Counted from the first letter of the stretch, positions 5,814-41,620 are shown. The stretch is 64,000 nucleotides of DNA from Candidatus Fermentithermobacillaceae bacterium (GCA_012842685.1 DUSI01000010.1:23988-87987); one strand, 5' to 3'. A program made the numbers and translations. The notes: generated by a model not told the origin, from the letters alone.

Positions 5814-5977
5814 AGCACCATCGCCTTTCTTGGGCCCCGGCCTCAAGGGCCCACCCATCGTTACATGGTTATGTAGACCCGAGATGTATGTGTGAATGTT
5901 ACAGGGAAGCTGGGGCGGGACCAAGAAATGGATAGGTGAACCTGAAGGCGCCCAAGGCGCAGGAGGTAGCAAGAGAC

Positions 5978-7597
5978 ATGGCACAGGAAGGACGCAGGGC
6001 ATGGGTACTTCTTGAAAACGGGCTTCTTTTCGACGGGCTCGGGAGTCCGCCTCGAAAGGGCTCGGTCTTGATTGGAGACGGCAGAATCGCAGCGGTAGGG
6101 GAGATAAGCGCATCGGCCGTCCCGAGCGATGTGGCAAAAGTTGACGCCAGGGGACTCGCCGTGTGCCCCGGTTTCATAAATATCCACTCCCACTCTGATA
6201 CCGATATGCTCATGCATCCGGAATCGAAGACCCTCCTCAAGCAGGGGATAACCACGGAAGTGGTGGGGAACTGCGGGGGAGGACCGGTAGACGCCCGGGA
6301 GATCTCCGAGGAAGTCTGGGAAGAGCTGGCGGCCGCCATGGTTCAAAAAGGCGCGCCCCGGAGGCCCGAAAGGTGGACCAGCCTCAAGGGTTATCTTGAG
6401 ACCGTGAGCCTCGCCAGGCCCGCGGCCAACGTGGCTGCTTTGTTCGGGCACGGAGACGTCCGGAAGAAAGTCTTGGGCGACCAAGAAGATGGAAAGCCCC
6501 TGAACGAGGAGCGCCGCAGGCAAGCATCGGCTCTGGCACGGCAGTACATGGAAGAAGGGGCCTTCGGGATGTCGAGCGGGCTGGAGTACGTGCCGGGGAG
6601 GTGCGCCGATGCTATGGAGCTGGCGGCGGTTGCCGCGCCGGTTGCTGAGTTCGGAGGGATCCACGCGTCCCACATCCGGAACGAGGGTCCCATGCTTCTG
6701 GAATCCGTGGAAGAGATCATACGCGTCGCGGAGCTCTCGGGAGTGAGGTCCGAAATATCCCATCTGAAAGCGGTTGGCCCCGCGAACTGGGGAAAGGTGA
6801 AGGACGCCCTCGCCCTCATGGATGAGTTTAGCGCCCGAGGTATGACCATTGCCGCCGACTTCTACCCTTACCTTGCTTCGTCAACCGGGCTTTCTATCGT
6901 GCTGCCCGACTGGGTGGTGGAAAGGGGTACCGCCCGCGGGCTAGAGGTCCTAAGGGATCCGGAGCTCAGGGCCCGGGCCGTCCGCGAGTCGGACGAGAGG
7001 ACCGAAGTCCAGGGCGGCTGGGCGCGGGTGGTCATAACGGGAGTAGAGAAGCCCGAGAACAAATGGATGGAGGGTTTGGATGTAGCGGCTATCGCCGCCA
7101 AGATTGGGAAACACCCTGCGGAAGCGGCGGTAGATATACTCATATCCGAAGATATGCACGTGAGGATCGCCCGCTTCGCCATGAGCGAGGACGACCTCAT
7201 CTACATCATGAGGCATCCCGAGACTTGCGTAGTGACCGACGGCTGGAACACCGTCCCCGAGAAAGGCAAGACCCATCCCAGGTCTGTGGGCACCTTCCCG
7301 AGAGTCATAGGTCATTACGCCAGGGATAGGGGCGTAATCTCTATGGAGGAAGCGATCCGCAAGTGCACGTCGCTGCCTGCCAAGAAGCTGGGCCTCAAAG
7401 ACCGTGGAATACTTGCGCCCGGCTACTGGGCAGACCTTGTGGTGTTTAGCCCTGAGACCCTGATCGACAGGGCCACCTACGATGACCCGTGGCGGTACCC
7501 CGAAGGAATAGAAGCCGTGTACGTGAACGGTGTGGCCGTCATCTTCGAAGGCGAACTCACGGGCGAAAGGCCGGGCATGGCGCTCTACAGGAAGTAG
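5978..7597 (+). CDS. N-acyl-D-amino-acid deacylase (D-aminoacylase) family amidohydrolase
   Basis: VCPGFINIHSHSDTD metal-binding HxH motif and GITTEVVGNCGGG; ~540 aa; AGGAGG RBS 11 nt before the ATG at 5978. Confidence 0.85.
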   Translation: MAQEGRRAWVLLENGLLFDGLGSPPRKGSVLIGDGRIAAVGEISASAVPSDVAKVDARGLAVCPGFINIHSHSDTDMLMHPESKTLLKQGITTEVVGNCGGGPVDAREISEEVWEELAAAMVQKGAPRRPERWTSLKGYLETVSLARPAANVAALFGHGDVRKKVLGDQEDGKPLNEERRRQASALARQYMEEGAFGMSSGLEYVPGRCADAMELAAVAAPVAEFGGIHASHIRNEGPMLLESVEEIIRVAELSGVRSEISHLKAVGPANWGKVKDALALMDEFSARGMTIAADFYPYLASSTGLSIVLPDWVVERGTARGLEVLRDPELRARAVRESDERTEVQGGWARVVITGVEKPENKWMEGLDVAAIAAKIGKHPAEAAVDILISEDMHVRIARFAMSEDDLIYIMRHPETCVVTDGWNTVPEKGKTHPRSVGTFPRVIGHYARDRGVISMEEAIRKCTSLPAKKLGLKDRGILAPGYWADLVVFSPETLIDRATYDDPWRYPEGIEAVYVNGVAVIFEGELTGERPGMALYRK

Positions 7598-7670: not shown

Positions 7671-8651
7671 ATGAACATACCGGCGGCCAAGAAAGCGATC
7701 TCAAAGGCCTGGGGGCAGGTGCTGTTACCCGAGGTAATCCTTCTCGCCCTGATCGCGGACGGAGGGTTTCACGGTCTGTCCGCGCTGGTTATGGGGGGGC
7801 TGCAGCTGCGGGGCGGGGCCGGCGCACCGGGATGGGGACTGCTGGGCCTGTTTGTAGTCATCGCAGCACCTGCGGTCGTAAGCGGGCTCTGGTCGGTTTG
7901 CCGGGAAGTGGTGGTAAGAGGCAGGGGAGGATGGAACGATTTTTGGTCTGGGCTCGGCACCTATTGGTGGAGGCTCGTCGGTCTTGCCGCTATGGCGACC
8001 CTCGCCGCGATGGCTACGGCGGCTGCCCTGGGGCTTCCCATGAGTGAAATACCCCTTTCAGAGCTGGTGAGCGTGGAAGGGTTGTTTCTTGGGCTGCAGC
8101 TCAGAACTCTCATTTTCGCTGGCCTGGTCCTCGCGGCGCGGTATTTTTTCGCCATGGTGGTCCCGGCGATGGTGATAGAGCAGACACCGGCCCTTCGCGC
8201 GGTGGAACTCGGCGCGAGATTTGGGTGGCGCAATCCTTCCGTGCTGGTGCCGGTGGTGATATTCGATCTGGCGGTGAACTGGGTCATGAGGCGGCTGAAC
8301 TCCGCCGCGGGTAGCCTGTTTGACTACGGGTTCCGGTTCGATCTCGGGATCCTCCTGCCATACTTCCTGGTGTTGCTCCTGGGTTCGGCGGTCGCGGCGT
8401 TTTTCAGACTGCTTTACCTCGGGATTTACTATGACAATCTTGTGCTTTCAGGAAGCGAGACTATCCCGGGCCACCCGGTTGAACCGGGTATGGATAGCGA
8501 GCTCCTGTTGGACCCGACCGGAGGAACCGGACAATCGAGGAAAGATGGGGAAGAGGATCCCGGAGAACAGGAAGAGCCTCAGGGTGCCGGGAAACCCGAG
8601 GAGGAGAGAAGCCCCGGAAGGTCCGGAAAGCCTGATGACCGGGAGCGATAG
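7671..8651 (+). CDS. multi-pass membrane protein with an acidic, Pro/Glu-rich C-terminal tail
   Basis: 7-8 hydrophobic segments; C-terminus DGEEDPGEQEEPQGAGKPEEERSPGRSGKPDDRER. Confidence 0.6.
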   Translation: MNIPAAKKAISKAWGQVLLPEVILLALIADGGFHGLSALVMGGLQLRGGAGAPGWGLLGLFVVIAAPAVVSGLWSVCREVVVRGRGGWNDFWSGLGTYWWRLVGLAAMATLAAMATAAALGLPMSEIPLSELVSVEGLFLGLQLRTLIFAGLVLAARYFFAMVVPAMVIEQTPALRAVELGARFGWRNPSVLVPVVIFDLAVNWVMRRLNSAAGSLFDYGFRFDLGILLPYFLVLLLGSAVAAFFRLLYLGIYYDNLVLSGSETIPGHPVEPGMDSELLLDPTGGTGQSRKDGEEDPGEQEEPQGAGKPEEERSPGRSGKPDDRER

Positions 8652-8743: not shown

Positions 8744-8773
8744 GGGTCGTGTCCTCAGAATTTGCGAAGCGCC

Positions 8774-10237
8774 TTAGCTCAGGAATCCGGCGTACTTCCC
8801 AATGATCTCCATGAGGGCGACAAGACCCTTGACTGCCAGTCTCATCCGGTCGGGGATGAGGTAACCCTCGTCGTCCGAAGTGCCCTGTCCCGGCGAGATG
8901 AAGATGTTGCCGTCGTAGGCGATGGTGGCGATTATGCCCATCTGGGCGAGACCGACCTGGATGAGGTGGGACCCGGCGTACATGTCTTCGATGGAGAAGA
9001 TGGGGAAGCCCATGCCGTCCTTCCAGGTCTTCTCGTAGTTGACCTCGACGGTCATGCTGTTGTAGGACTTGGAGATCAAAAGGCCTTCCCTGAGCTTCGG
9101 GTTTGCCTTGTCGAACTCGGAAGTCACGATCTCGTACAGCTCGTCGACCTGTTTGGTGTAGAACTCGGGGTTGTCCCTGAGGTCTTTGAGAACCGCGACC
9201 TGGGTAAGGAGCGCTTCCTTGCCGGGATCCATGGTGACGTACTGGGCCTTTCCGTAGGAAGCGGTGGTCCCGTACCTGTCGCCGTGCATACCCAGGGCGC
9301 GCCTTACGTTGACCATGACATCTTCGCGTCCGATGATGAGGCCCGAAGTCGCGGAGCCGGTCGCCTTATCCATGCTGTAGACGATAGCGGAAGCGCCCGA
9401 CTTCCTGATGTCGTGCCCGACGAAGGGGAGACCCCATGCGTTGTCCACGACATACGGCACGTTGAGCTTGGCGGCGAGGTCGCCGATTCCTTTCTGGATG
9501 ACGGGTATGCCGTTCGGTTCCTTGGCTGCGTATCCGTAGCCCGGGGTGTCGTAGCCGAGGGACGCGAAGCCCACGACGTAGGGCCCGTGTACCTGGGCGG
9601 CTTCCTCAAGGGCTTTGACTGTGCCTTCGGCATCGACCTCGGTAAGGAGGGGTACCGGGAAGTACTTGATGCCGTGGTTCGGGTAGTGGGCGCCCTTCAT
9701 CGGGACGATCACTACGTCGAGGTTCTCGAGACGCTTTCCGGCAAAGCCGAACTCGCCAGGCGTCGAACCTCTCTCGGCGAGCATCTCCTTGTACTTGGGC
9801 GGGAAGGGCCGGCCATAGCCCGCCTGGTGGTGCATGTGCTTCTCGAGCGGGACGATGTAGCGGGCGCGGTAGTTGTCGCCTCGTCCGGTCATGGGGGCCG
9901 AGAACAGCGTGTCGAACGTTACCCAAAGACCGCCCTCGCAAGTGTTCACGGGGCAGACGTCGTACTCGTCGCCGTAAACGCTCTTCACGATCTCGCGGAT
10001 CTCGTCAACCAGCCTCGCGAGAGGAATCACCTGGGTCGCGCCCTTGTGGGCGGCTTCCAGTACGTTCTTCCTCATGGGAGCCGGGCAACCTGAGATGGCT
10101 CCGGTAAGTCCGATGTTCCCCTTGAGGTCCCCAACGATGCCCAGGTCTTCGGCCGCCTTCTTGGCTTCGGCGTAGATCTTCTGGGTGTTGGCCTGAAGGT
10201 GTTTGTACATCTGGAACTTGTACTTGAACTCCGGCAC
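8774..10237 (-). CDS. fold-type-I PLP-dependent enzyme of the SelA-like family; candidate large (OrtB-like) subunit of a 2-amino-keto-acid thiolase
   Basis: 487 aa; YSMDKATGSATSGLIIGRED resembles the SelA PLP-lysine motif FSGDKLLGGPQAGIIVG; translationally adjacent to the upstream 147-aa gene. Confidence 0.6.
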   Translation of the reverse strand: MPEFKYKFQMYKHLQANTQKIYAEAKKAAEDLGIVGDLKGNIGLTGAISGCPAPMRKNVLEAAHKGATQVIPLARLVDEIREIVKSVYGDEYDVCPVNTCEGGLWVTFDTLFSAPMTGRGDNYRARYIVPLEKHMHHQAGYGRPFPPKYKEMLAERGSTPGEFGFAGKRLENLDVVIVPMKGAHYPNHGIKYFPVPLLTEVDAEGTVKALEEAAQVHGPYVVGFASLGYDTPGYGYAAKEPNGIPVIQKGIGDLAAKLNVPYVVDNAWGLPFVGHDIRKSGASAIVYSMDKATGSATSGLIIGREDVMVNVRRALGMHGDRYGTTASYGKAQYVTMDPGKEALLTQVAVLKDLRDNPEFYTKQVDELYEIVTSEFDKANPKLREGLLISKSYNSMTVEVNYEKTWKDGMGFPIFSIEDMYAGSHLIQVGLAQMGIIATIAYDGNIFISPGQGTSDDEGYLIPDRMRLAVKGLVALMEIIGKYAGFLS

Positions 10238-10266
10238 TACGGTTCCTCCTCTCGAATTCCGGTCCC

Positions 10267-10710
10267 TTAGGACCGCATCAAAAAAGTTACTTTGGTGTTG
10301 AGTGAGATGCCTCTCTTCTCGCCGCAGCGGAGGTCGCCCCTCAGGACTATGTTCATGTGGTTGGGGAAGTGGCTCATGTCGAACCCGGCAAGTTCGCCGA
10401 TCTCCTCCCCTTCGATACAGACCTTGTCTCCCGCGAGGAGGACGCCTCCCTGCTGGAACTCTACGAAGGCCAGGTAGGCGATGGAACCCACCCGATCCCC
10501 GGGGGACACAGGTTCGGGCGTCACGATGAGCTCGTGCACTTCGCCCTTGGACACGGTCCTCGAAGGTTGCGGGATGAGCTCGAGCCCCCTGTCGGGTACG
10601 GTCCCTCTCAGGACGGCGACCACCACGCCTTCCAGAGGCACTTTGTCCACATAGGCGTTGGACGTGACCTTCTTGCTGACGTATGGGTCGTTCTTTGCCA
10701 CTTCTCTCAC
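10267..10710 (-). CDS. small subunit-like protein (147 aa) encoded immediately upstream of the SelA-like enzyme; OrtA-like partner candidate
   Basis: co-oriented, 29-nt gap to the downstream gene; no recognisable catalytic motif. Confidence 0.55.
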   Translation of the reverse strand: MREVAKNDPYVSKKVTSNAYVDKVPLEGVVVAVLRGTVPDRGLELIPQPSRTVSKGEVHELIVTPEPVSPGDRVGSIAYLAFVEFQQGGVLLAGDKVCIEGEEIGELAGFDMSHFPNHMNIVLRGDLRCGEKRGISLNTKVTFLMRS

Positions 10711-10743
10711 CTCTTAGGGCGCCTCATGTTGTGTTCGGCGACG

Positions 10744-10759
10744 AATGAGTGGTATCATT
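10744..10759. promoter_or_regulatory. inverted repeat AATGA-N6-TCATT in the divergent promoter region; candidate operator for the adjacent FCD regulator
   Basis: read directly; lies between divergently transcribed genes. Confidence 0.3.
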
Positions 10760-10812
10760 CATGTGACCTATTCACCATTGATGAGCAGATCCCTTCATGT
10801 CGGCGAAGATAA

Positions 10813-11610
10813 ATGTGCGACTTTCTGTGGGAGGTGACCAACATCCCATCGTATCAGAGCGACAACGCATACTTGACAGCCCTCCATGTAGTTGCAGAAT
10901 CGGAAGTCCCCGTGGGGGCGTGGTACCTGCGCAGGGCCTTGTCCGAAAGGGGCATCCGGGTTTCGGAGGCGACGTGCGGAAGGCTCCTCAGGATGATGGA
11001 AGACGCCGGCCACGTGGAAGCCAAGAGCCGCAAAGGGCGGGTTCTCACCCCCAGGGGCCAGCGTGTGCTCCAGGAATGGCAGGAGCGGCTCAAGCGGGAC
11101 AGGAGCCAGACGGCTTTTGTCCAGAGCCTCAGGGTTCACAACCCGGAAGAGCTTGTTGACGTCCTTATCGCCAGGCGAGCTCTTGAAGGAGAAGCCGCTG
11201 CCTTGGCCGCGGAGAACGCTACCCCCGAAGAGATAGGCCGGCTCCGCAACATCATCAGAGAGCACGAAGCAGCTCTCTCGGCCCAGCAGTCGGGCGCCGA
11301 GGAAAACACCGCTTTCCATCTGACGCTGGCGGAAGCCAGCAGGAACAAAGTCATCGTGGCCGCTCTGGATGTCATCTACAGGCACCCCGATGTGATGACT
11401 TCCCTCGAGTACATCCGTGCCCATGCCGGATCCAAAATGGCCGCCGACCACAACCCTGTACTTAACGCCGTGGCGCAGAGAGACCCTGACGCTGCGCGCG
11501 CGGCCATGATCCAACACATCAACAACGTGATAGAGGACGTGAAAACGTACCTCCGAACGTTGGCGTCGGAGGGGGAATCAGAAGTTGTCAGCAAGACAGA
11601 AAATCCTTGA
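10813..11610 (+). CDS. transcriptional regulator with an N-terminal winged-helix and a C-terminal FadR-type ligand-binding (FCD) domain
   Basis: C-terminal helical bundle VLIARRALEGEAAALAAENATPEEIGRLRNII...HLTLAEASRNKVIVAAL typical of GntR/FadR FCD domains. Confidence 0.75.
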   Translation: MCDFLWEVTNIPSYQSDNAYLTALHVVAESEVPVGAWYLRRALSERGIRVSEATCGRLLRMMEDAGHVEAKSRKGRVLTPRGQRVLQEWQERLKRDRSQTAFVQSLRVHNPEELVDVLIARRALEGEAAALAAENATPEEIGRLRNIIREHEAALSAQQSGAEENTAFHLTLAEASRNKVIVAALDVIYRHPDVMTSLEYIRAHAGSKMAADHNPVLNAVAQRDPDAARAAMIQHINNVIEDVKTYLRTLASEGESEVVSKTENP

Positions 11611-11821
11611 CGCGTGTGACATAGAGACCTTCTTTGTGTGCAAAGACGCAGAAGAGGGAAAGAGACTTGGGTTGGCCCTCATGAAAGAACTGGGGTTCGC
11701 CGATTGTGACGTGGTGTTCTCCGAGATGGCAGGCCCCGGAGCCCGCGTGAGGGTAAGGGGGTATGTAAACCGTCCGGGTAGCACCTACACCTGGCGGCAG
11801 GAAGGAGGACGCCCATCGTGA
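11585..11821 (+). CDS. 78-aa protein translationally coupled to the B12-binding mutase-like gene; possible small subunit
   Basis: TTG start 8 nt after GGAGGGGG; stop overlaps the GTG of the next gene (GTGA). Confidence 0.4.
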   Translation: MSARQKILDACDIETFFVCKDAEEGKRLGLALMKELGFADCDVVFSEMAGPGARVRVRGYVNRPGSTYTWRQEGGRPS

Positions 11822-13641
11822 GCGCCGGCGCAGGCCAGAAGATCTTGATCGTGCCCCTGGATCCGGTACACGACGTGGGGGCTAAACTCATCGCCAGGAC
11901 CTTGCGGGAGAGAGGCCATTCGGTGACGCTCCTCCCGCCTGATCTTTCTATCGAAGAAGTGATATCCAGGGCCCGGCAGATGGTACCAGACTTCATCATG
12001 GTCAGCCGCACCATCAGCTACGACACTCCCGAGATCCTCGCGAAATTCGCCGACATGTGCGACGTGGCGGGCCTGAGGAGCCACGCCAAGCTGGTCGTCG
12101 GCGGTATGAGCATCCGCAAGGAGATGGCGCAGGAACTCGGTTTCGACGCCGGGTTTGGCCCGGAGACCACCCTGGAGGAAGTGGCCGATTACGTCGAAGG
12201 GAAGGTTCACCACGAGGAAGGAAAGGCGTACACCGGGACAAAACCGGACCTCACGAGAGGCTACAAATACGAGTTCGTGGATAAGGAGATAGGCGATCTC
12301 TGCGTGGCCATCGCCCGCCAGCTGATAGACTGGGCTTCAGAGCGTACGAGCCCGGGCGTGGAGAGGGCGAGGCTCCGGCTGGAGATGGAGAAAGCGAGGG
12401 GCGCGGGAGACGAGTCCCTCGCCCGCGAGCTCAGGGCGAAATACGCCTCTCTGACGGGCGGAGATGTCCGCAAGTGGTACGAAAGCGGCGCGCCCATACC
12501 TCACACGAGACCCCTCACGGCCGACGAGGTCGCGGCGCTTGAGGGCATGGATGAGGGTATCCCGGCACAGCTTCTGTCTCAGAAGCCGCTGGAACCCTCG
12601 AACGTGATCATCCAGTACGGCACCGGCTGTCCCGTGATGGATGCCTACCATATTAGACTTTCCCTGGCGTGGGGAGCGAAAGGCGCCGTGCATTTCGACC
12701 CGTCGTGGGGAGCGAGAACCGAGGGCCTTGCGGAAGGCACGCTCAGCCACCAGCACGACGGGACCGTGCTCACCCTAGAGAACCTCAGGCTCCTCAAGCG
12801 GGCGGTCCATCCGGCTGCGCTCTGGCAAGTGAGGGCCCACAGGGGCCTCAATACCCCCGAGACCGTGGTGCTCGCCCACCTTTCAGGGGCCGACCTCACG
12901 AAGATAAACATCGTCTACGGGAGCCTCGGGGCCGGGACAGACCCCGCCAGGCTGGCGGTGGACGGCGTAGAATGTCTCAGGCTCGCGGCCTCCTTCGGGC
13001 TTCCCTATGACGTGGTGACCAACGAGGAGCTCTGCGGCGTGCCTGCCAGGAAGGCTTTCGCGGGAATGCTGGTCGTAGCCACTGCAGGCGTCCTCCTGGG
13101 CGGCAGGCCCATCCTGCAGCCTCTCTTCGCCGATTCCCCGGAGGCCATGGTCTCCGGCTTTACCCGGGATAACTTGGTGGACTTCAACGCCGCAAAGATG
13201 ATCGCCCTGAAGAGCATAATGGACGCGCCCATATGGCCGGGCGCCCCCGTAGGGTTCATGACCCAGACTCAAGACAGGTGCCAGTCTTCAACGATGACTG
13301 CGCTTCACGCCGCGCTGGGCCTCAGGTTGGGCGCTGAAGCGGTCACGATCGCTTCGAGCGATGAGGCTTACGCGGGCGGGCCCATCTCTGCCCAGGCCAG
13401 GGTAGACACTCTCAAGGCGGTGGCGGCAGCCCTTAAGTTCTTCGGCTCGACCCGCATCGCTCCCACCCCCAGGGCGGAAGAGATGGCGGCCGAACTGAGG
13501 AAAGGCATAAAGGAGACCCTCGAGAGAGTCTACGAGAGAGGCGACTTCGTGGCATCCCTCTATGAGGGGCTCCTGGGAGATAGGGAGGACGGGGCCTATC
13601 CCGGCAGGGCAGGAAGAGATACCGTTACCCTTCGGAAATAG
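11818..13641 (+). CDS. cobalamin-binding mutase-type protein: N-terminal B12 Rossmann domain fused to a ~470-aa C-terminal catalytic domain
   Basis: KILIVPLDPVHDVGAKLI (DxHxxG), ...FIMVSRTISYD..., LVVGGM... aligns with the GlmS/MutS-type B12 domain; GAAGGAGGA RBS 8 nt before the GTG. Confidence 0.8.
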   Translation: MSAGAGQKILIVPLDPVHDVGAKLIARTLRERGHSVTLLPPDLSIEEVISRARQMVPDFIMVSRTISYDTPEILAKFADMCDVAGLRSHAKLVVGGMSIRKEMAQELGFDAGFGPETTLEEVADYVEGKVHHEEGKAYTGTKPDLTRGYKYEFVDKEIGDLCVAIARQLIDWASERTSPGVERARLRLEMEKARGAGDESLARELRAKYASLTGGDVRKWYESGAPIPHTRPLTADEVAALEGMDEGIPAQLLSQKPLEPSNVIIQYGTGCPVMDAYHIRLSLAWGAKGAVHFDPSWGARTEGLAEGTLSHQHDGTVLTLENLRLLKRAVHPAALWQVRAHRGLNTPETVVLAHLSGADLTKINIVYGSLGAGTDPARLAVDGVECLRLAASFGLPYDVVTNEELCGVPARKAFAGMLVVATAGVLLGGRPILQPLFADSPEAMVSGFTRDNLVDFNAAKMIALKSIMDAPIWPGAPVGFMTQTQDRCQSSTMTALHAALGLRLGAEAVTIASSDEAYAGGPISAQARVDTLKAVAAALKFFGSTRIAPTPRAEEMAAELRKGIKETLERVYERGDFVASLYEGLLGDREDGAYPGRAGRDTVTLRK

Positions 13642-13694
13642 GCCGGAAAGCCAGATTTCGGTCAAGCGATTATCACAAGAGGTGGCCCCAGTCC

Positions 13695-14915
13695 TTGGCT
13701 AAGATACTCGGAATAGCGGGAACTGCTAAGAATACCGGCAAGACCACCACCTTACAGGCGGTGGTCCGTTTTCTGCGTGAGATGAGGACCGGCGTGTACC
13801 TCACCAGCATCGGTTACGACGGAGAGGAAGTGGACACCGTCACGGGGCTCCCCAAGCCGAAGGTGGTCGTCGAGGAAGGCGACATGGTGGCCACCGCCCT
13901 CCCGCTTCTCAAAGCGTCTCCGGCGAGGTTCACGCGGCTGGAGTACACGGGGGTAGACTGCGCTCTGGGCCCCGTGTACTCCGGCGTGGCCACAAGCCCA
14001 GGGAGGGTTGTGCTGGCGGGGCCTTTGAGCACCAGGGACGTTGCGACCGTGCTCAAGAGCGCTCCCACCGAGAGAGTTGTTCTCCTCGACGGCGCCTTCT
14101 CACGTCTCGCGCCCATGGTGCTGGCGGATGCCCTGATCCTTGCCACCGGCGCGGCCAGGTCTCCCGACGCCAGGCGGATCGCCGCAGAGATGGAAGCGCT
14201 GTCGTCGGTATTCGGGCTTCCTGAACACGCAGGTTACGCCGCTTCGGGAGGCGGGAACTCCGGAGAAGCATGGGTTCCCAAGGACTCTGACTTCCTTACT
14301 TTCGCCGAAGGCCTCTTTGTGGATGGGCAGGATCTGGACATCGTCTCGGGCGTGGCGGGGGCGTTGGGGATCGACCCGTCTCAAGTCGCTCCGGCGCCTT
14401 CCTCGCCTATGGGAGTGACGCTCTGCGGTGAGGACATGGATGAGACCGCGAGGCCTGCCGTGACGGTCCAGATAGACGGAGTAGTCAACCCGACAGTATT
14501 CCTGGCCATGGCGGAGAAGGTCGCCGGGGTAATAGCCGGGAATTCGCGGCGCCCGTGCTCTGGGATGAGATATGAGGCTACGCCGCGGTTCTCCGTGGAG
14601 TTCGTCCTGGACCATCCGGTGCACCTGCTCCTCTCGGGAGACATAGCCGAGTGGGTGGGAGCCCTGAGGAAAGTGGGAGAGATGGGATTTCGCGTAAGCC
14701 TCAAGAGGCGGACTGAGCTCTTGGGCTTTACGGTGAACCCTTTCCGGCCCGAGTACGACCCCATAAGGAACGCCTACGTCGCGCTATATGTGGACGCAGG
14801 GGAATACCTCAAGGAAATCCGGAGCATAACCCAGGTACGTTGTACCGACATTGTCTACGAAGGGACCCACGCCCTTGAGTCGTGGCTCGTTGAGGCAGAT
14901 CTCGCAGGTTCCTGA
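13695..14915 (+). CDS. P-loop NTPase with CobQ/CobB/BioD-like (dethiobiotin-synthetase) fold N-terminus, 406 aa
   Basis: Walker A GIAGTAKNTGKTTT at the extreme N-terminus; TTG start. Confidence 0.7.
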   Translation: MAKILGIAGTAKNTGKTTTLQAVVRFLREMRTGVYLTSIGYDGEEVDTVTGLPKPKVVVEEGDMVATALPLLKASPARFTRLEYTGVDCALGPVYSGVATSPGRVVLAGPLSTRDVATVLKSAPTERVVLLDGAFSRLAPMVLADALILATGAARSPDARRIAAEMEALSSVFGLPEHAGYAASGGGNSGEAWVPKDSDFLTFAEGLFVDGQDLDIVSGVAGALGIDPSQVAPAPSSPMGVTLCGEDMDETARPAVTVQIDGVVNPTVFLAMAEKVAGVIAGNSRRPCSGMRYEATPRFSVEFVLDHPVHLLLSGDIAEWVGALRKVGEMGFRVSLKRRTELLGFTVNPFRPEYDPIRNAYVALYVDAGEYLKEIRSITQVRCTDIVYEGTHALESWLVEADLAGS

Positions 14916-14989
14916 CCGCCGAGAGGAGACCTCAATGCCGCCCGAAGGCAGGCGGCGCAAAGCCACGAGCGCCCCTTGAAGGCACCCGG

Positions 14990-16174
14990 TCAGACTCGCT
15001 GGGATAGGATCTCTCTAAGCGCCCGGGCCAGGTATTCGTAGTCGCTCAGGGTGTTGTACGCCTGTGCCGAGACCCGGACAAGGCGCCGTCCCGCCTGAGG
15101 CCAGCTGACTATGGGCACCTCGATCCGGTAGTCGTCGTAAAGCTTCTCCTTCACCCGGTCGAGGGATATTCCCGAAGGGGCCTTGATGGGCTCTTCGAGA
15201 GGAAGGAGTGGCGGGGCGGCCATGGATCCCAGCATCCGGTCGGGGCAAGGCGGCTCGCATTCGAAAGCCTCGCACAGGAGGTCCTTGGCGGCGACCGCGA
15301 GTCTATGGTTTCGCTCCATGAGTTCGCCGATGCCTCCGGGATACAGAGACCCCAGGAAGTCGATGCAGTCTCCCACCAGGATGTAGGGCGTGTAGTCGTC
15401 GGTCCCGGTCCAGTCGAACTCGAGGTGGAGGAAGCTCTTGTCCGTTCTGGTCGAGTTCGCGCCGTGGCTTATGACAAGAGGCCTTATCCCTTTTTTCTTA
15501 TCTTCCCGGATGTAGAGGAACCCCGAGCCTTTGGGCGCGCAAAGCCATTTGTGGCAGTTCCCCGTATAGTAGGCGACGCCCAACTTGTGGAGATCGAGGG
15601 GGATCATGCCGGGAGCGTGCGCCCCATCGACCATGACATCAATCCCCTTTGAAGCGAGCTCGGCCGCAATCCTCTCGACCGGGAAAATGACCGCGGTCGG
15701 ACTCGTGACGTGGTCTATGAGGACGAGCTTTGTCCTCTCCGTAAGTGCGCCCAAGACCGCGTCTATCACTTCTTCTTCCGACTGAAGCGGGAAGGGCACG
15801 TGGGCGGTTACGACCTTGGCACCTGTCTTTCGGGCTACGTGGATGGCCGCGTTGTTGCAGGCGTTGTATATGTGGTCGGTGACGAGTATCTCGTCGCCGG
15901 GCGAGAAATTCAGCGAGGCGAGCACCGTGTTAACGCCCGTCGTCGCGTTGGGTACGAAAACAAGATCCTCAGGAGACGCGCCCACGAGAGAGGCCAGTTT
16001 TCTCCTGGAGGCGTCCAGGAGCTCATCTAGCTCCTTCTGGAAGTGCCTCACGGGCTGGCTCTCGATGTGCAGCCTCAGTAGGTGCTGCTTCTCGATGATG
16101 GCCTTCGGCATGGCTCCGAAGGAGCCGTGGTTCAGGAATGTAAACGTATCGTCTAGGTTCCAGAGGTGCTTCAC
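14990..16174 (-). CDS. class-V aminotransferase-fold PLP enzyme (isopenicillin-N-epimerase / cysteine-desulfurase-like)
   Basis: HKWLCAPKGSGFLYIR PLP-lysine region; N-terminus LNHGSFGAMPKAI. Confidence 0.85.
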   Translation of the reverse strand: MKHLWNLDDTFTFLNHGSFGAMPKAIIEKQHLLRLHIESQPVRHFQKELDELLDASRRKLASLVGASPEDLVFVPNATTGVNTVLASLNFSPGDEILVTDHIYNACNNAAIHVARKTGAKVVTAHVPFPLQSEEEVIDAVLGALTERTKLVLIDHVTSPTAVIFPVERIAAELASKGIDVMVDGAHAPGMIPLDLHKLGVAYYTGNCHKWLCAPKGSGFLYIREDKKKGIRPLVISHGANSTRTDKSFLHLEFDWTGTDDYTPYILVGDCIDFLGSLYPGGIGELMERNHRLAVAAKDLLCEAFECEPPCPDRMLGSMAAPPLLPLEEPIKAPSGISLDRVKEKLYDDYRIEVPIVSWPQAGRRLVRVSAQAYNTLSDYEYLARALREILSQRV

Positions 16175-16423
16175 GACTTAACCCTCCCCGGCCCGCTTCT
16201 AGCGGGCGTCAAGCAGCCGCAGTGTCTGCGGGCGTACCTAGAGGAAGATTCGGCAAGGTCCATCCCACACCTTCGCGCTCCACAGAAACTCATGATAACC
16301 GGCCCGTGTCCCACGGTAGGGTGCACGGATAACCGAAGTTTTTCCTTCTCTCTTCCGGCGTCCGGAGGAAGCTGGGGCCAGGCAGGCGAAGAATGACCCA
16401 ATCAGAGTGCGGGAGGGGTTCTT

Positions 16424-17182
16424 GTGCAGGAGATGAAAGGGAAAGCGGTCATCGTGACCGGAGCATCCAGCGGGATCGGAAGGGCATGCGCCCTGAAGTT
16501 CCTAGAGGCGGGGTGCAAGGTGGCTGCCGTCGCCAGGAGAAAAGAGCTCTTGGAGGCTCTGGCTGAAGGCTCGAAGGACATGCTTCCCATCCCCGCCGAC
16601 ATCACGGTTCCCGCCGAGGTGGACCGCGTGGTAGAAGAGACCGTCAAAGCCTTCGGTGGGATAGACGTCGTGGTGAACGCCGCAGGAATCCTGAGAAGCG
16701 GCAACATCGAGAGTACATCTCTCGACGATTGGGATGAGATGATGGCCCTAAACGTCAGGGCGCCCTTCTACCTCATCAAAAAAGCCATGCCTTACCTAAT
16801 CGAGCGCAAGGGCAACGTGGTGAACGTATCGAGCGTAAACGGCTTGAGGGCCTTTCCCGGAGTCCTCGCCTACTGCGTAAGCAAGGCGGCTCTCGACCAC
16901 CTCACAAGATGCGTTGCCCTCGAGGTTGCATCCAAGGGCGTGCGCGTGAACGCCGTGAACCCCGGGGTGACCCTCACGAACCTCCACAAAGCCGGCGGGA
17001 TGGACGACGAAGCGTACCGAGCGTTCCTGGAGAGGAGCAAGACCACTCACCCCCTGGGGAGGGTCGGGACGCCCGAAGAAGTGGCCGAACTCATATTCTT
17101 CCTCGCGTCGCCCAAGGCCGGGTGGATAACCGGCGCTTGCTACTCGATAGACGGCGGAAGGGGCCAGACGTGCCTGAGGTAG
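16424..17182 (+). CDS. short-chain dehydrogenase/reductase (FabG-like)
   Basis: TGASSGIGRA cofactor motif, NAAG, catalytic YCVSK; GTG start 5 nt after GGGAGGGG. Confidence 0.9.
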   Translation: MQEMKGKAVIVTGASSGIGRACALKFLEAGCKVAAVARRKELLEALAEGSKDMLPIPADITVPAEVDRVVEETVKAFGGIDVVVNAAGILRSGNIESTSLDDWDEMMALNVRAPFYLIKKAMPYLIERKGNVVNVSSVNGLRAFPGVLAYCVSKAALDHLTRCVALEVASKGVRVNAVNPGVTLTNLHKAGGMDDEAYRAFLERSKTTHPLGRVGTPEEVAELIFFLASPKAGWITGACYSIDGGRGQTCLR

Positions 17183-17343: not shown

Positions 17344-17889
17344 ATGGAGTTTGGCGCCCGCCTCAGGAGAATCCGGATGACTCAAGGTATTTCCGTAAGG
17401 GAATTCGCGAGACGTGTAGGAGTATCAGGCTCATATATATCCCAGCTTGAGAGCAATGAATGCAAACCATCGTATTCAGTCCTCAAAAGGATCGCGGAAG
17501 AACTCGGAACCACAGTCAGCGTTCTCACGGAAGACAGGCTCCCGGAAGAATGGGTCGTGGTTAAGGCCAGCGCGAGGAGGCGCCTTGTCACCGGGTTTCC
17601 CGGCGTCGAGGTGGAGCTCGTGACCTTTCTCGGACAGCGGGATAAGTCCATGCAGTCTTGCTTCGTGAGGATGAAACCTGGTTCAGAGGCAGTGGATCCG
17701 GTGTTTAGCCACGAAAGGGAAGACATGATTTACGTGACCAAAGGCACCGTGATCATCTACTCCGACGGTCAGGAGTACGTCCTGAACGAGGGTGACGTTG
17801 GTTATTTCAACTTCCAGAGCCCCGAGAAATTCATAAACCCCGGACCGGGCGACGCTGCCTTTTTCTGGGTAGTATCGCCGTCCAGGTAG
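17344..17889 (+). CDS. XRE-family HTH transcriptional regulator with a C-terminal cupin sensor domain
   Basis: ISVREFARRVGVSGSYISQLE HTH; C-terminal cupin barrel. Confidence 0.85.
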   Translation: MEFGARLRRIRMTQGISVREFARRVGVSGSYISQLESNECKPSYSVLKRIAEELGTTVSVLTEDRLPEEWVVVKASARRRLVTGFPGVEVELVTFLGQRDKSMQSCFVRMKPGSEAVDPVFSHEREDMIYVTKGTVIIYSDGQEYVLNEGDVGYFNFQSPEKFINPGPGDAAFFWVVSPSR

Positions 17890-17906: not shown

Positions 17907-18185
17907 GTGGTGACGATAACGGTTTGCGTGGGAAGCTCGTGTTTCCTCCGCGGTGCATCTCAGGTGATAGAAGGATTTCGTGCCCTGATCGAGCGAGAAG
18001 CGCCGGGAGTTGTCGAACTCAAGGGCAGCTTTTGCATGGAACGGTGCGGCAACGGGGTGACGGTGAAGATCGGAGATGTCATCCTGGCCGACGTCCATCC
18101 GGAAGATGTGGAGAACGTTTTTCGAGAGCACGTGCTGCCCGCCTTAGGAAGAAACGCGGAGTGTGGCCAACATGTCCATCATTGA
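17907..18185 (+). CDS. NuoE-like thioredoxin-fold [2Fe-2S] ferredoxin (HfsA-like)
   Basis: four Cys in the NuoE pattern (TITVCVGSSCF...GSFCMERCGNG); GTG start 6 nt after a G-run. Confidence 0.75.
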   Translation: MVTITVCVGSSCFLRGASQVIEGFRALIEREAPGVVELKGSFCMERCGNGVTVKIGDVILADVHPEDVENVFREHVLPALGRNAECGQHVHH

Positions 18186-19935
18186 GACGGTGCGGCGAAA
18201 GTGCAGGGACTGCTACAAGTGCCTGCGTGCGTGCCCGGTGAAAGCCATCAAGGTAGAGCGAGGCCCTCAGCCTTACGAAGTCCATGCCAGCGTGCATGAG
18301 GACTTCTGTGTAAACTGCGGCACGTGCATAAGGGAGTGCCCGCAGAAGGCGAAAAGGCCCCGGGTCGATACGGACAAAGTGAGGGAGATGCTGCGGAGGG
18401 GCGACCGCGTGGCCGCAAGCCTCGCTCCGTCTTTCGCCGCGCTCATCGACCGGCCCTTGCGTCTTGTCACCGCCCTCCGGAAAGCCGGCTTTTCCACGGT
18501 CCAGGAGACGGCCTTGGGTGCCGAGATGGTATCCAGGGCGCATATGAGGCTCCTGGAAGAATCGCAGGTGCCGTATATAGGGAGCGCGTGCCCCGCCGTG
18601 GTGAGCCTGATCGAGAGGCACTACCCTGAGGCCATAAGATTCCTCGCCCCTTTGGTCTCGCCGGCCATCGCCCACGGCAGGTACCTGAAACGCTCCATCC
18701 CTGGGGTCAAGGTGGTTTTCATAGGACCCTGCGTGGCCAAGAAAGAGGAGATAGACGATCCCGAGGTAAGGGGCGCGGTCGACGTAGCCCTCACCTTTGA
18801 CGAAACTCTGGCCTGGTTGAGAGAAGAGGGCATCAGACTCGAGGATTGCCGTGACGGCGAGCTGGACGGGCCCTTTCCCTCAAGGGCGCGACTCTTCCCC
18901 GCGGACGGGGGTCTCCTCCGGTCGACCGTGGACTGCGGCTTGCTCTCCAAGGCCTATCTTTCGGTGTCGGGAATGAGCGCGTCCATCGAGATGATCCGGC
19001 ATTTCCTGAGCAGCCAAGACGTGCCCCGCCTGGTGGAGCTCCTGGCGTGCCCGGGAGGGTGTATAGCGGGGCCTTCCGCAAGTCCCGAGAGAGACCTCTA
19101 TGAGAGGCGGAGGCTCCTCATCGAGTACGAGAGGTCGGCGCCCGAAAGCCCCGGCGCTGGTCCGGAGTTCTACGAAAGCCTCCTCTCGCCCGAGGAGCTG
19201 AGGAGGTCCTACAGAAACTTGAAGGTGCCTCTCGCGAAACCTTCCGAGAAGCAGATAAAGGAGATCCTCGAGCGTACGGGCAAGTACAGCCCACAGGACG
19301 AGCTGAACTGCGGATCGTGTGGGTATTCGTCGTGCAGGGAGAAGGCCATAGCGGTGTTCAACGGCATGGCCGACCCAGAGATGTGCATCCCGTACATGAG
19401 ACAGCGGGCGGAGTCCATGGCCAACGTAGTGGTGGGCGCCACTCCCGACGGTGTTATAGTCACCACCCCCGACGGGACGGTAGTCGACCTGAACGCGGCA
19501 GCCGAAAGGATGCTCGGTAAGAAAAAGAAAGAAGTCCTGGGCACGAGCATATCCGCACACATGGATGCCTCGCTCTTTGAGGAAAGCGCCCGGACGATGG
19601 CTACCTCACGGGGGGAGATGTCGCTGAACGGCCTCGTGATAGACGGCCAGGTGGTCTACGTGCCCGACCAGAAGCTCCTCGTGGGCCTTTTCATGGACAT
19701 AACCGAAGAGCGCAGGCAGACGGAAAAGAGGAAGCGGGTTGCCGAGGAGGCGATCGAACGGGCAAAGAAGGTCATCGAGGAGCAAATGGAAGTCGCCCAG
19801 AAGATCGCCGGCCTCCTTGGGGAGACCACGGCCGAGACCAAGATATCCCTCACCGCGCTTATGAACGTGATAAAGGAGGAAATGCCGTCAAGTGGCTCGT
19901 CTAAAGGCGGAAGTGGCGGTAGCCCAGCTCAATAA
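18172..19935 (+). CDS. sensory [FeFe]-hydrogenase-like protein with a C-terminal PAS domain (HfsB/HydS-like)
   Basis: N-terminal 2x[4Fe-4S] ferredoxin Cys motifs; H-cluster motifs GSACPAV (L1 variant), FIGPCVAKKEE (L2), ELLACPGGCIAG (L3); extra CGSCGYSSC...C cluster; PAS region GATPDGVIVTTPDGTVVDLNAAAERMLG. Confidence 0.85.
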   Translation: MSIIETVRRKCRDCYKCLRACPVKAIKVERGPQPYEVHASVHEDFCVNCGTCIRECPQKAKRPRVDTDKVREMLRRGDRVAASLAPSFAALIDRPLRLVTALRKAGFSTVQETALGAEMVSRAHMRLLEESQVPYIGSACPAVVSLIERHYPEAIRFLAPLVSPAIAHGRYLKRSIPGVKVVFIGPCVAKKEEIDDPEVRGAVDVALTFDETLAWLREEGIRLEDCRDGELDGPFPSRARLFPADGGLLRSTVDCGLLSKAYLSVSGMSASIEMIRHFLSSQDVPRLVELLACPGGCIAGPSASPERDLYERRRLLIEYERSAPESPGAGPEFYESLLSPEELRRSYRNLKVPLAKPSEKQIKEILERTGKYSPQDELNCGSCGYSSCREKAIAVFNGMADPEMCIPYMRQRAESMANVVVGATPDGVIVTTPDGTVVDLNAAAERMLGKKKKEVLGTSISAHMDASLFEESARTMATSRGEMSLNGLVIDGQVVYVPDQKLLVGLFMDITEERRQTEKRKRVAEEAIERAKKVIEEQMEVAQKIAGLLGETTAETKISLTALMNVIKEEMPSSGSSKGGSGGSPAQ

Positions 19936-21046
19936 GCACGGTGAAGAGCTCTGCGGCGACTGCGTGGAAGTGGTCGAAGGGTCGTCCACGCTGGTGGTCC
20001 TCTCTGACGGCCTGGGAAGCGGCGTCAAAGCCCACATACTGGCCTCCATGACCTGCAAGATGATAGCCACCATGCTGAGGGGCGGGCTTCATCTGGATGA
20101 AGTGGTTGACTCTCTCTCCAAGACTCTGCCCGTCTGCGAAGTCAGGCACCTCGCCTACAGCACCTTTTCCATCTTGCGCATCATGGCCGACGGATCGGCT
20201 TACCTGGCTGAATTCGACAACCCGGCGGTTTTCTGGGGTAGAGGCGACGAGCTCCTGTCCTTTGAGCGTGAAAGCCGGGATTACGCGGGGAAAATCGTCA
20301 AGGAAAGCCGGTTCACCGTCCAGGACGGCGACTGGCTGGTGATGATAAGCGACGGAGTCCTCCACGCAGGGATAGGCGGCGTCTGGAACCTTGGCTGGGG
20401 CTGGGACAGGATAGGCGACTACCTGCGGAGGGTATCCCCTTGGGAAGAAGACGCCAGGTCTCTGGCCAGCCAGCTGTTGGAAACCACGAGGAAGCTCTAC
20501 GCGGGGAAACCCGGCGACGACGCCACGGTGGTCGTGGTGAAGATACGGGTCCCGAGGAAGCTCACGGTGCTGGCAGGCCCGCCTGAGAAGAGGGCCGACG
20601 ATGCCCATGTGGTGCGGCTCCTCATGGAGAGCCCGGGAAAGAAGGTCGTCTGCGGCGGCACCACCAGCCTCATGGTCGGCAGGGAGCTGGGTAGGAGGGT
20701 GGAGGTGGAGCTGGGCTCCATAAGGGATTCGACGCCTCCCACAGGCCGTATCGAAGGCATTGACCTCGTAACCGAAGGGATACTTACCCTTACAAAGGCC
20801 GCGGATATACTCAGAGACGGGACCCCTCCAAGACACGTGCTTCGTTACAAGACCGATGGCCCCAGCAGGCTCGTGAGTCTCCTCGCGGAAGCCGACGAGA
20901 TAAGCTTCATAGTCGGCAGGGCGATAAACCCCGCCCACCAGAGCCCAGACCTTCCTTCCGAACTCGCCCTCAAGAGCAAGGTAGTAGAGGACCTTGCCCG
21001 GATCTTGCGCTCCCACGGAAAGCAAGTGACGGTTGCCACTTACTGA
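19892..21046 (+). CDS. PP2C/SpoIIE-type serine phosphatase (HfsC-like)
   Basis: VVLSDGLGSG and MISDGV metal-binding motifs; GTG start preceded by AGGAGGA; overlaps the hydrogenase end by 44 nt (translationally coupled). Confidence 0.85.
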   Translation: MARLKAEVAVAQLNKHGEELCGDCVEVVEGSSTLVVLSDGLGSGVKAHILASMTCKMIATMLRGGLHLDEVVDSLSKTLPVCEVRHLAYSTFSILRIMADGSAYLAEFDNPAVFWGRGDELLSFERESRDYAGKIVKESRFTVQDGDWLVMISDGVLHAGIGGVWNLGWGWDRIGDYLRRVSPWEEDARSLASQLLETTRKLYAGKPGDDATVVVVKIRVPRKLTVLAGPPEKRADDAHVVRLLMESPGKKVVCGGTTSLMVGRELGRRVEVELGSIRDSTPPTGRIEGIDLVTEGILTLTKAADILRDGTPPRHVLRYKTDGPSRLVSLLAEADEISFIVGRAINPAHQSPDLPSELALKSKVVEDLARILRSHGKQVTVATY

Positions 21047-40981: not shown

Positions 40982-41620
40982 ATGAGCGATCTGTTCTCCC
41001 AGAGCCTGAGAGACGTCCTCAAAGTAGCGGCGTCCAGCGAGCCGACGCCCGGAGGCGGCAGCATAGCCGCCATCACAGCGGGTTTCGCCGCGTCCATGGT
41101 GAGCATGGTATGCAACCTCACCATAGGCAAGAAGAAGTATAGGGACGTAGAAGAACAGGTGACCCGGATTAGGGACCGGGCCCTTGCGCTTATGAACAGG
41201 GCAGAAGAGCTTGTCCAGGCGGATATGGCGGTTTTCGGCCGGTTTATGGAGTGCTACAAGATGCCTGCCTCAACCGACGAGGAGAAGGAGAGGCGGGAGC
41301 ACCTCATCCAGGAGGCCCTGAAGGGAGCCACCGAGACCCCCATCGACATAGCCCGCGCCGCCGTGAGCATACTCGAGCTGGTAGATGAGCTCGCTCCCAT
41401 CGGGAGCCAGATGGCCATCAGCGACGCCGGCGTGGCCGCGTACCTTGCGGACGCCGCCGTGAGCTCTGCACTCCTGAACGTCGACATAAACGTCCCCCTC
41501 ATCAAAGATGAGTCCTTTGTGGCCAAGGCCCTCGAGGAAAAAAACGGCCTGCTGGAACAGGCCGCTCGGCTGAAAGATAGAGCGGTGGCTACTGTTTCTC
41601 GCCGGCTTCAGTCTTCCTGA
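40982..41620 (+). CDS. fchA: formimino-THF cyclodeaminase / methenyl-THF cyclohydrolase-like (FTCD_C domain) protein
   Basis: SSEPTPGGGSIAAITAGFAASMVSMV hallmark; adjacent to folD. Confidence 0.75.
   Translation: MSDLFSQSLRDVLKVAASSEPTPGGGSIAAITAGFAASMVSMVCNLTIGKKKYRDVEEQVTRIRDRALALMNRAEELVQADMAVFGRFMECYKMPASTDEEKERREHLIQEALKGATETPIDIARAAVSILELVDELAPIGSQMAISDAGVAAYLADAAVSSALLNVDINVPLIKDESFVAKALEEKNGLLEQAARLKDRAVATVSRRLQSS

Follow-up and report, generated by a model that had tools for sequence, protein, structure and literature searches.

Which pathway is served by a gene cluster whose central protein joins a cobalamin (B12)-binding domain to a long C-terminal region with no match in Pfam or NCBIfam? 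The question is raised by a 64,000-nt stretch of DNA from a Candidatus Fermentithermobacillaceae bacterium (GCA_012842685.1 DUSI01000010.1:23988-87987), which as a whole is called the window here. A first-pass annotation had described in it seven linked genes, among them a 607-amino-acid (aa) mutase-like protein, as a candidate undescribed catabolic cluster dependent on B12 and pyridoxal 5'-phosphate (PLP). Every open reading frame (ORF) that it named was recovered in its place by an ORF listing. The observation is real and its interpretation is right in outline: this is an undescribed B12/PLP-linked cluster related to the lysine (Kam) and ornithine (Ora) systems. As described below, the mutase is always accompanied by a translationally coupled 78-aa subunit and nearly always by a KamB-type P-loop protein. 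In addition, a regulator with an FCD domain and a 15-bp palindromic operator join the mutase operon to that of a 487-aa PLP enzyme and a DUF6917 protein, which elsewhere also includes a Rid-family imine/enamine deaminase and a flavin adenine dinucleotide (FAD) oxidoreductase. We consider that these genes probably form a two-operon regulon for the catabolism of a small polar amino acid. A literature search on DUF6917, KamB/KamC and new aminomutase families returned no paper on this system.

The 607-aa protein begins with a B12-binding domain of the mutase type, as had been proposed (residues 10 to 121; PF02310, 54.7 bits), and the remaining 470 or so residues gave no match in Pfam or NCBIfam. 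In an alignment of 36 homologues, residues D15, H18 and D19 are invariant, and G21 and G95-G96 are nearly so. The top matches of this Rossmann domain in both NCBIfam and the PDB were to KamE, the beta subunit of lysine 5,6-aminomutase, and its C-terminal half is nearest to KamE and OraE (profile E-values of 4.5e-19 and 3.3e-11). An AlphaFold2 model built with the 36 homologues (mean predicted local distance difference test score of 86) has a Rossmann domain followed by a helical linker and then an alpha/beta barrel of eight strands, which bears out the TIM barrel that had been asked about for the C-terminal domain. The closest fold was that of KamD, the alpha subunit of lysine 5,6-aminomutase (8t0v_A; fold score 30.0, 369 aligned residues, 15% identity), followed by OraE of ornithine 4,5-aminomutase (24.7, 345 and 13%), GlmE of glutamate mutase (22.1, 328 and 14%) and the barrel of the corrinoid methyltransferase MttB (15.6, 250 and 11%). 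Further corrinoid-methyltransferase and pterin-binding barrels scored approximately 14 to 16. The protein thus carries a base-off/His-on cobalamin domain fused upstream of a KamD/OraE/GlmE-type barrel, and should therefore belong, with its domains in a rearranged order, to the adenosylcobalamin (AdoCbl) radical isomerases of the aminomutase lineage.

The kinship of this family with the aminomutases is visible only by structure and by profile-profile comparison. At E≤0.01, neither PF09043 (Lys-AminoMut_A), a profile suggested for the first check, nor NF052384 matched the 607-aa protein, whereas a genuine KamD scores 916 bits, and the barrel sequence profile found no link to solved structures at E≤10. 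Comparison of the barrel profile with KamD and OraE by HHalign gave an E-value of about 1e-4 and a probability of 55-58% over up to 436 columns. Several motifs were common to both sides of this alignment (RTSPGVERA/YTTVAVERT, WGARTEG/FGATTEG, GT..T.EN, GLNTPE/GLCMPE, YG and a C-terminal G-F...P...G-G). When 1.84 billion representative sequences were searched with a hidden Markov model (HMM) of the barrel, only the family itself was recovered, as one full-length representative and fragments, so that the family forms a tight island in sequence space. It has more than 1000 homologues, all annotated merely as cobalamin-binding proteins, and its members share more than 50% identity from Bacillota to Thermotogota.

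The domain arrangement differs from those of the two aminomutases. In KamDE the alpha and beta subunits are separate, whereas here the Rossmann domain and the barrel are fused and their order is reversed, although the KamD barrel fold and the His-on DxHxxG motif are shared. In OraE the barrel comes first and the Rossmann domain, whose Lys629 carries PLP, comes last; here that order is inverted and that Lys is missing. Glutamate mutase (GlmES, with GlmL/MutL) is less similar in structure and in sequence, uses another type of reactivase and belongs to the methylaspartase pathway, whose genes are not found here. The GlmS model NF002612 gave 25.1 bits against a cut-off of 110, with GlmE only the third-best fold.

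Both lysine 5,6-aminomutase (5,6-LAM) and the 4,5-aminomutase for ornithine (OAM) bind PLP through a Lys situated 11 residues past the cobalt-ligating His (K144beta after H133beta and K629 after H618, respectively), and the interactions in the PLP pocket are highly conserved in the two enzymes (PMC3958899). Canonical KamE reads DAHTVGIDAVMNMK in this region. In the 607-aa family, the residue at H18+11 is Leu29 and not Lys, nearly invariantly so (at least 90% of the 36 homologues), and the KamE-specific loop is missing. On the side of the barrel, the KamD PLP pocket (R184, G187-Q188-S189, Y236, S238, Y263, R268 and N299) was examined through the HHalign alignment (probability 55-58%). The stacking Tyr263 falls on the invariant Y367, Ser238 on R342, which is also invariant, Arg268 on A372, and the loop R184-T-T-G-Q-S on F293-D-P-S-W-G or on a gap; only Y263, among the KamD ligands, maps to a conserved equivalent. 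An invariant Lys, K362, stands at the end of a barrel strand, five residues ahead of Y367. Since the His+11 position is Leu29 and the KamD ligands appear mostly replaced in this alignment, the canonical PLP arrangement of the aminomutases is absent from the 607-aa family. The PLP Lys of the Rossmann domain being missing, a plain KamDE/OraSE-type mechanism is therefore not to be assumed.

Conservation of the gene neighborhood was analyzed in 82 loci from Bacillota and Thermotogota, out of 295 stretches that encode a relative in a one-genome-per-species collection. Genes were counted by tblastn with the window proteins and with recurring neighbors, and the 47 loci in which each flank spans 7 kb or more served as a subset. 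The small ORF was found in 78/82 loci, always directly upstream of the mutase gene, and in all 47 loci of the subset. In the window, its stop codon (TGA) overlaps the GTG start of the 607-aa ORF as GTGA, the coupling that had been read in the first place, and a Shine-Dalgarno sequence, GGAAGGAGGA, lies 8 to 9 nt upstream of that start. Twenty of 34 members matched PF16554 (OAM_dimer, the dimerization domain of D-ornithine 4,5-aminomutase), weakly, with a best E-value of 0.0013. The small-subunit profile found no KamE or OraE match in the PDB, and HHalign against the KamE N-terminal domain gave a probability of 23%. It is plausible that the 78-aa subunit is the dimerization domain of KamE split off as a separate polypeptide; the counterpart of that domain here is at best this separate ORF.

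The 406-aa P-loop protein had been regarded as an added component, different in kind from the chaperones of known mutases, and this view does not hold. Its N-terminal half matched NF052386 (reactivase_KamB) with an E-value of 7.4e-47 and 159.9 bits, which falls under the curated cut-off of 210 because of an insertion at about residues 180 to 300. Orthologues from Tepidanaerobacter and Thermotoga score 242 bits, above the cut-off, and 201 bits, respectively. BLASTP against canonical KamB gave 32% identity across 237 residues, and the motifs GTAKNTGKTT, TSIGxDGE and TGLPKP are conserved in the KamB-like family. For comparison, a canonical kam cluster was fetched via a KamE fragment; the gene order in such clusters is KamB, KamC (a MutS-type ATPase, NF052383), KamD and KamE. 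The window holds no KamC-like gene, and across 85 family loci KamB homologues were found at 79 and a KamC-like sequence, probably unrelated, at one. By its sequence, then, the 406-aa protein is a KamB homologue that lacks the KamC ATPase partner. KamA, Kdd and Kce of the lysine pathway are likewise missing here, and no homologues of Orr, Ord or OrtAB lie beside the mutase gene. We also observed that many public KamE gene calls (L086-L091, P0312-P0431) are only 100 to 170 aa long; in L086 and L088, the two loci that were read, the frame is broken by a stop codon or unresolved bases no more than about 50 codons before the B12-domain part.

The KamB-like gene was counted in 74/82 loci (43/47 in the subset), the FCD regulator in 62/82 (39/47), the 487-aa PLP enzyme in 61/82 (38/47), the DUF6917 gene in 53/82 (33/47), an FAD oxidoreductase of about 427 aa (PF12831/GIDA-like) in 44/82 (26/47) and a Rid-family protein in 42/82 (28/47). 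Either the 487-aa enzyme or Rid was present in 45/47 loci of the subset. Order and orientation of the genes vary by lineage, and the set stays together. Six of the genes that had been proposed as functionally linked (small ORF, mutase, KamB-like, FCD regulator, 487-aa enzyme and DUF6917) are therefore retained, whereas the short-chain dehydrogenase/reductase (SDR) and the class-V PLP enzyme, found in 3/82 and 2/82 loci (3/47 and 2/47), were rejected as core members. The amidohydrolase of the window was counted in 5/82 loci (3/47), namely the four nearest relatives (L004-L007) and L055, with a 33%-identical match. Other recurrent neighbors were EamA transporters, a ProC-like reductase, a PyrK-like iron-sulfur flavoprotein and, in 17 loci, a 460-aa membrane protein of no known family. 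A 458-aa Thermotoga protein considered as a divergent PLP enzyme was rejected; it is a multi-pass membrane protein without a known family and recurs in 17 loci.

Some lineages carry further genes around this set. Two sets of 2-oxoacid:ferredoxin oxidoreductase lie near the cluster in Caldinitratiruptor, and a sister lineage has a D-2-hydroxyacid dehydrogenase, an ArgE/DapE-family deacylase and DapF beside it. Pseudothermotoga has a single long operon comprising a TAXI-TRAP transporter, an Asp/Glu-type racemase, HcnA/HcnB-like subunits, the FAD protein, the membrane protein, meso-diaminopimelate (meso-DAP) dehydrogenase (Ddh), DapF, the small subunit, the mutase and the KamB-like protein; here the FAD protein stands in place of an HcnC/LhpB-type catalytic subunit, beside Fer2_4 and Pyr_redox_2 subunits. 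In five Pseudothermotoga loci (L003, L032, L035, L038 and L047), the genes for DapF and meso-DAP dehydrogenase immediately precede those of the small subunit and the mutase in one operon, and both proteins exceed their NCBIfam equivalog cut-offs; in L009, L017 and L018, DapF is next to the gene of the PLP enzyme. These neighbors might hint that the system deals with diaminopimelate or a similar diamino acid.

Three observations concern the layout of single loci. Variant arrangements were seen in L054, L063, L064, L059 and L061: some have the gene of the PLP enzyme immediately after that of the mutase, with the KamB-like gene undetected, and in L059 and L061 the DUF6917, PLP enzyme and mutase genes stand together, the small ORF being undetected. 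Desulfosporosinus sp. OT (L040, L070; NZ_AGAF01000043.1) has, on one contig, two full DUF6917-Rid-PLP-FAD-small-mutase-KamB-like sets about 17 kb apart. In L001, L083 and many Bacillota loci, the cluster has scpA/scpB on one side, ytfJ and dacB being close by, and a pseudouridine synthase gene of the rluB type on the other, and appears inserted in a conserved housekeeping/sporulation region.

The pairing of a fold-type-I PLP enzyme with a small protein, as first annotated, is supported, and the small protein is DUF6917, whose gene adjoins or lies near the 487-aa gene in 53/82 loci. The 487-aa family is unnamed, and its listed relatives share 64-92% identity. K291, in SMDKATG, and D265 are invariant in it; the conservation of this Lys had been a point to be checked. 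The protein has the modeled fold, the putative Schiff-base Lys and the putative Asp to the pyridine nitrogen that define fold type I, and its predicted fold matches many families of this type about equally. PF03841 (SelA), also suggested for a check, gave no match. The SelA-related DgaE model (TIGR01437) matched locally, over 60 residues round the SMDKATG Lys, with 23.2 bits against a cut-off of 385, and TIGR00474 gave 15.1 bits (cut-off 268). The fold and an S-x-D-K-x-x-G round the Schiff-base Lys are shared with the SelA/SepCysS/DgaE/Cap15 group, in which SepCysS likewise has a small dedicated partner, SepCysE, and several members use aminoacrylate-type intermediates, which fits a Rid partner. 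The 147-aa protein matched nothing in NCBIfam and no sequence in the PDB. An OrtA/OrtB identity of the pair, once suggested by analogy with ornithine fermentation, was rejected: the small protein is DUF6917, and no Ort model was among the NCBIfam matches at E≤0.01, in a database that holds the ornithine-pathway models Ord and OraE and, we assume, those of OrtA/OrtB. A 443-aa ORF runs antisense through the 487-aa gene (window 8762-10093, plus strand); it has no family and a low-complexity composition, and looks like a GC-rich artifact.

The regulator scored 91.8 bits with the FCD model PF07729 (cut-off 24.3) and 31.9 bits with PF08461 (HTH_12; cut-off 21.4). It is partially like LldR, NanR and GlcC, the FadR/GntR-type regulators of organic-acid and amino-acid catabolism, and shares with them the FCD effector domain, an N-terminal winged helix and a palindrome ahead of the regulated operons, whereas its N-terminal domain matches HTH_12 and not the usual GntR helix-turn-helix. 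Alignment of the regions upstream of the regulator gene revealed a conserved 15-bp palindrome with the consensus CTCATCAnTGATGAG. The 1.46 Mb of the 82 loci contain 44 exact copies of it, and 72 copies when up to one mismatch is allowed, compared with 0 and 0.03 in shuffled sequence. The gene just downstream of such an operator-like site is DUF6917 in 25 cases, the small ORF in 11, Rid in 7 and the FCD gene in 4; in some loci, sites are also found close upstream of the membrane-protein or FAD genes. Because the palindrome precedes both operons, the mutase and PLP modules appear to be one regulon under the FCD regulator, and this is the strongest evidence for their link; the operator function itself is predicted. 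The window copy, TTCACCATTGATGAG at 10771-10785, has two mismatches to the consensus, and this variant, TTCACCAcTGATGAG, is kept in the nearest relatives (L004-L007, L010, L011, L024 and L025).

A divergent FCD regulator with a palindrome in the shared promoter had been noted before. The regulator stands and an operator-like site is present, but the palindrome then meant is probably GAATGA/TCATTC (10743-10760), which is weak and is the only inverted repeat with 6-bp arms in the region. A promoter scan of the intergenic region found no full -35/-10 pair; taking TGGTATCAT as an extended -10 element is our own reading. At 41498-41512 of the window, a further operator-like sequence, CTCATCAAAGATGAG, with one mismatch, lies near the 3' end of an ORF (40982-41620); it may be a coincidence or a further site of the regulon.

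Taken as a catabolic regulon, the genes would act as follows. The mutase would perform on an amino acid a 1,2-shift initiated by AdoCbl, in which an amino group moves or a related rearrangement takes place, with the KamB-like protein reloading or repairing the cofactor without a KamC ATPase partner. This step may make the molecule amenable to PLP- and/or FAD-dependent deamination. The PLP enzyme with DUF6917 would remove nitrogen in an elimination- or transamination-type step, Rid, where present, would hydrolyze the resulting imine or enamine, and the FAD enzyme may be an amino-acid dehydrogenase. The product would be a 2-oxo acid, to be oxidized by ferredoxin oxidoreductases or reduced by lineage-specific dehydrogenases, in the window possibly the SDR. 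The first-pass annotation had expected a PLP-dependent C-C cleavage yielding acyl-CoA; since Rid, the FAD oxidoreductase and sometimes 2-oxoacid:ferredoxin oxidoreductases are the recurrent partners, the evidence points to a 2-oxo acid rather than to thiolytic cleavage. The DapF, Ddh, ArgE/DapE deacylase, racemase and amidohydrolase neighbors hint at diamino acids or cell-wall-derived amino acids as candidate substrates. Speculatively, the amidohydrolase, class-V enzyme and SDR of the window, though not orthologous, might stand in for the deacylase, epimerase and oxo-acid reductase found elsewhere.

Several points weigh against this interpretation. The sequence link of the barrel to KamD has an HHalign probability of only 55-58%, and that of the small subunit to OAM_dimer is weak. 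The pathway composition varies, since the 64-kb window has no Rid or FAD homologue and about 11 loci of the Fermentithermobacillus type (L008, L012-L016 and L019-L023) have Rid, FCD, small subunit, mutase and KamB-like genes only, with neither the 487-aa nor the DUF6917 gene within 10 kb. A minimal cluster occurs, for example, in Ca. Fermentithermobacillus carboniphilus CP062796. The roles proposed for the PLP enzyme, the FAD enzyme and Rid are drawn by analogy at the family level, and the catabolic direction is inferred only from the type of the regulator and the neighboring genes.

The chemistry of the mutase can be read in more than one way. It may be an ordinary aminomutase that depends on both PLP and AdoCbl, acts on a diamino acid (of the lysine, ornithine, diaminopimelate or 2,4-diaminobutyrate type) and binds PLP on K362 of the barrel instead of the Rossmann Lys, in a variant of the Stickland-type lysine and ornithine routes to which the first-pass annotation had likened the cluster. 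We hold this as tentative: its closest folds are the two PLP-dependent aminomutases, the second half of the Rossmann domain is nearest to KamE/OraE, the equivalent of the stacking Tyr263 is invariant with K362 five residues upstream, a KamB-type reactivase is present, and DapF accompanies the cluster, with meso-DAP dehydrogenase in the Pseudothermotoga operon and with the ArgE/DapE deacylase in the sister lineage. However, Leu occupies His+11 in at least 90% of the members, the ligands R184, G187-Q188-S189, S238 and R268 of KamD, highly conserved in OAM and 5,6-LAM (PMC3958899), are not kept in the HHalign alignment, and homologues of Kdd/Kce or Ord/OrtAB are absent here. Given the same credence is an enzyme independent of PLP, either a glutamate-mutase-like skeleton mutase acting on an acidic amino or organic acid, or an ethanolamine-ammonia-lyase-like eliminase making, from a vicinal diamino or amino-hydroxy acid, an imino acid for hydrolysis by Rid. 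Against this, the alignment in which the pocket appears lost is of moderate probability only, KamD and OraE outscore GlmE, the GlmS model remains at 25 bits (cut-off 110), and the clusters contain no methylaspartase, mesaconase or MutL/GlmL-type reactivase. A somewhat more doubtful proposal is that the family is a new AdoCbl reaction class, descended from PLP-dependent aminomutases, that gave up PLP and retains a one-component KamB-type reactivase. Such an enzyme might be an eliminase (vicinal diamino or amino-hydroxy acid to a 2-imino acid, hydrolyzed by Rid) or a novel skeleton mutase acting on an amino acid from the cell wall, for instance diaminopimelate.

Two other explanations are unlikely. 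That the modules are mere neighbors with unrelated functions, or a biosynthetic system, would agree with the differences in composition between lineages and with the frequent position of the cluster amid housekeeping genes such as scpB, rluB and tsaD. Nevertheless, the same 15-bp operator stands ahead of both modules in many genomes from different orders, the modules stay together while their order and orientation change, and Rid, 2-oxoacid:ferredoxin oxidoreductases and transporters point to catabolism, which leaves this reading improbable. Still less probable is a corrinoid methyltransferase system, in which the corrinoid domain would be fused to a TIM-barrel methyltransferase and the P-loop protein would be its activase: methyltransferase barrels are among the fold matches, but the 607-aa protein has no B12-binding_2 cap domain, and MtgC gave 34.6 bits against a cut-off of 370. 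The catabolic regulon is thus the interpretation that we retain, and within it there is a real chance of new chemistry.

The features of the cluster are collected in Table 1. In the window it is flanked by the housekeeping genes leuS, purA, cysS and ychF, and the closest relative is a metagenome-assembled genome of Candidatus Fermentithermobacillaceae, with 88% identity. Every NCBIfam match of the 394-aa class-V enzyme lay far under its cut-off. An Rfam scan of the window detected no cobalamin riboswitch and no other RNA family.

Table 1. Features of the cluster and its neighbors in the 64,000-nt window
Feature	Position	Strand	Evidence and remarks
487-aa fold-type-I PLP enzyme, unnamed family	8774-10237	minus	contains YSMDKATGSATSGLIIG; K291 putative Schiff-base Lys, D265 putative pyridine-N ligand
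147-aa DUF6917 protein, partner of the 487-aa PLP enzyme	10267-10710	minus	PF21891, 140 bits
Operator-like imperfect palindrome TTCACCATTGATGAG	10771-10785		divergent intergenic region between the DUF6917 and FCD regulator genes
265-aa regulator, winged helix and FCD ligand-binding domain (GntR/FadR-like)	10813-11610	plus	PF07729, PF08461
78-aa small subunit	11585-11821	plus	translationally coupled to the 607-aa mutase
607-aa mutase ORF, GTG start	11818-13641	plus	B12-binding domain, linker and barrel
N-terminal B12-binding Rossmann domain of the 607-aa protein	11818-12210	plus	D15-x-x-H18-x-x-G21 (His-on type), G95-G96
Helical linker and C-terminal TIM barrel of the 607-aa protein	12211-13641	plus	structurally KamD-like
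406-aa KamB-like P-loop protein, putative reactivase/chaperone of the mutase	13695-14915	plus	contains GIAGTAKNTGKTTT; NF052386
394-aa class-V PLP enzyme, lineage-specific neighbor	14990-16174	minus	PF00266 (Aminotran_5), 112 bits
252-aa SDR, lineage-specific neighbor	16424-17182	plus	PF13561, 219 bits
553-aa Amidohydro_3 metallo-hydrolase, lineage-specific neighbor, membership uncertain	5936-7597	plus	PF07969; NF006560 197 bits, under cut-off

Further genes were observed on either side. Between the amidohydrolase and 487-aa genes, a 326-aa predicted membrane protein (7671-8651) has no family match and is kept only in the four nearest relatives. Downstream of the SDR gene, the stretch 18163-21046 encodes a 590-aa protein of the sensory-hydrogenase type, with a [FeFe]-hydrogenase large-subunit domain, Fe-S motifs and a PAS domain, whose gene runs into the beginning of an ORF for a SpoIIE-family phosphatase; just upstream lies an HTH-cupin regulator (17344-17889).

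To our knowledge, only about a dozen families of AdoCbl-dependent isomerases and eliminases are known, and new ones are rare. The 607-aa family is found widely among Bacillota and Thermotogota that live anaerobically and are often thermophilic, is extremely conserved, and is invisible to the sequence profiles of its nearest relatives. The conserved operator offers a handle for mapping the regulon and for screening effectors of the FCD regulator. Overall, identifying the substrate would fill a gap in anaerobic amino-acid metabolism, would allow a function to be assigned to four or more families without a name (the barrel, DUF6917, the 487-aa PLP enzyme and the FAD enzyme), and would show how an aminomutase scaffold works without the canonical PLP Lys and the KamC ATPase.

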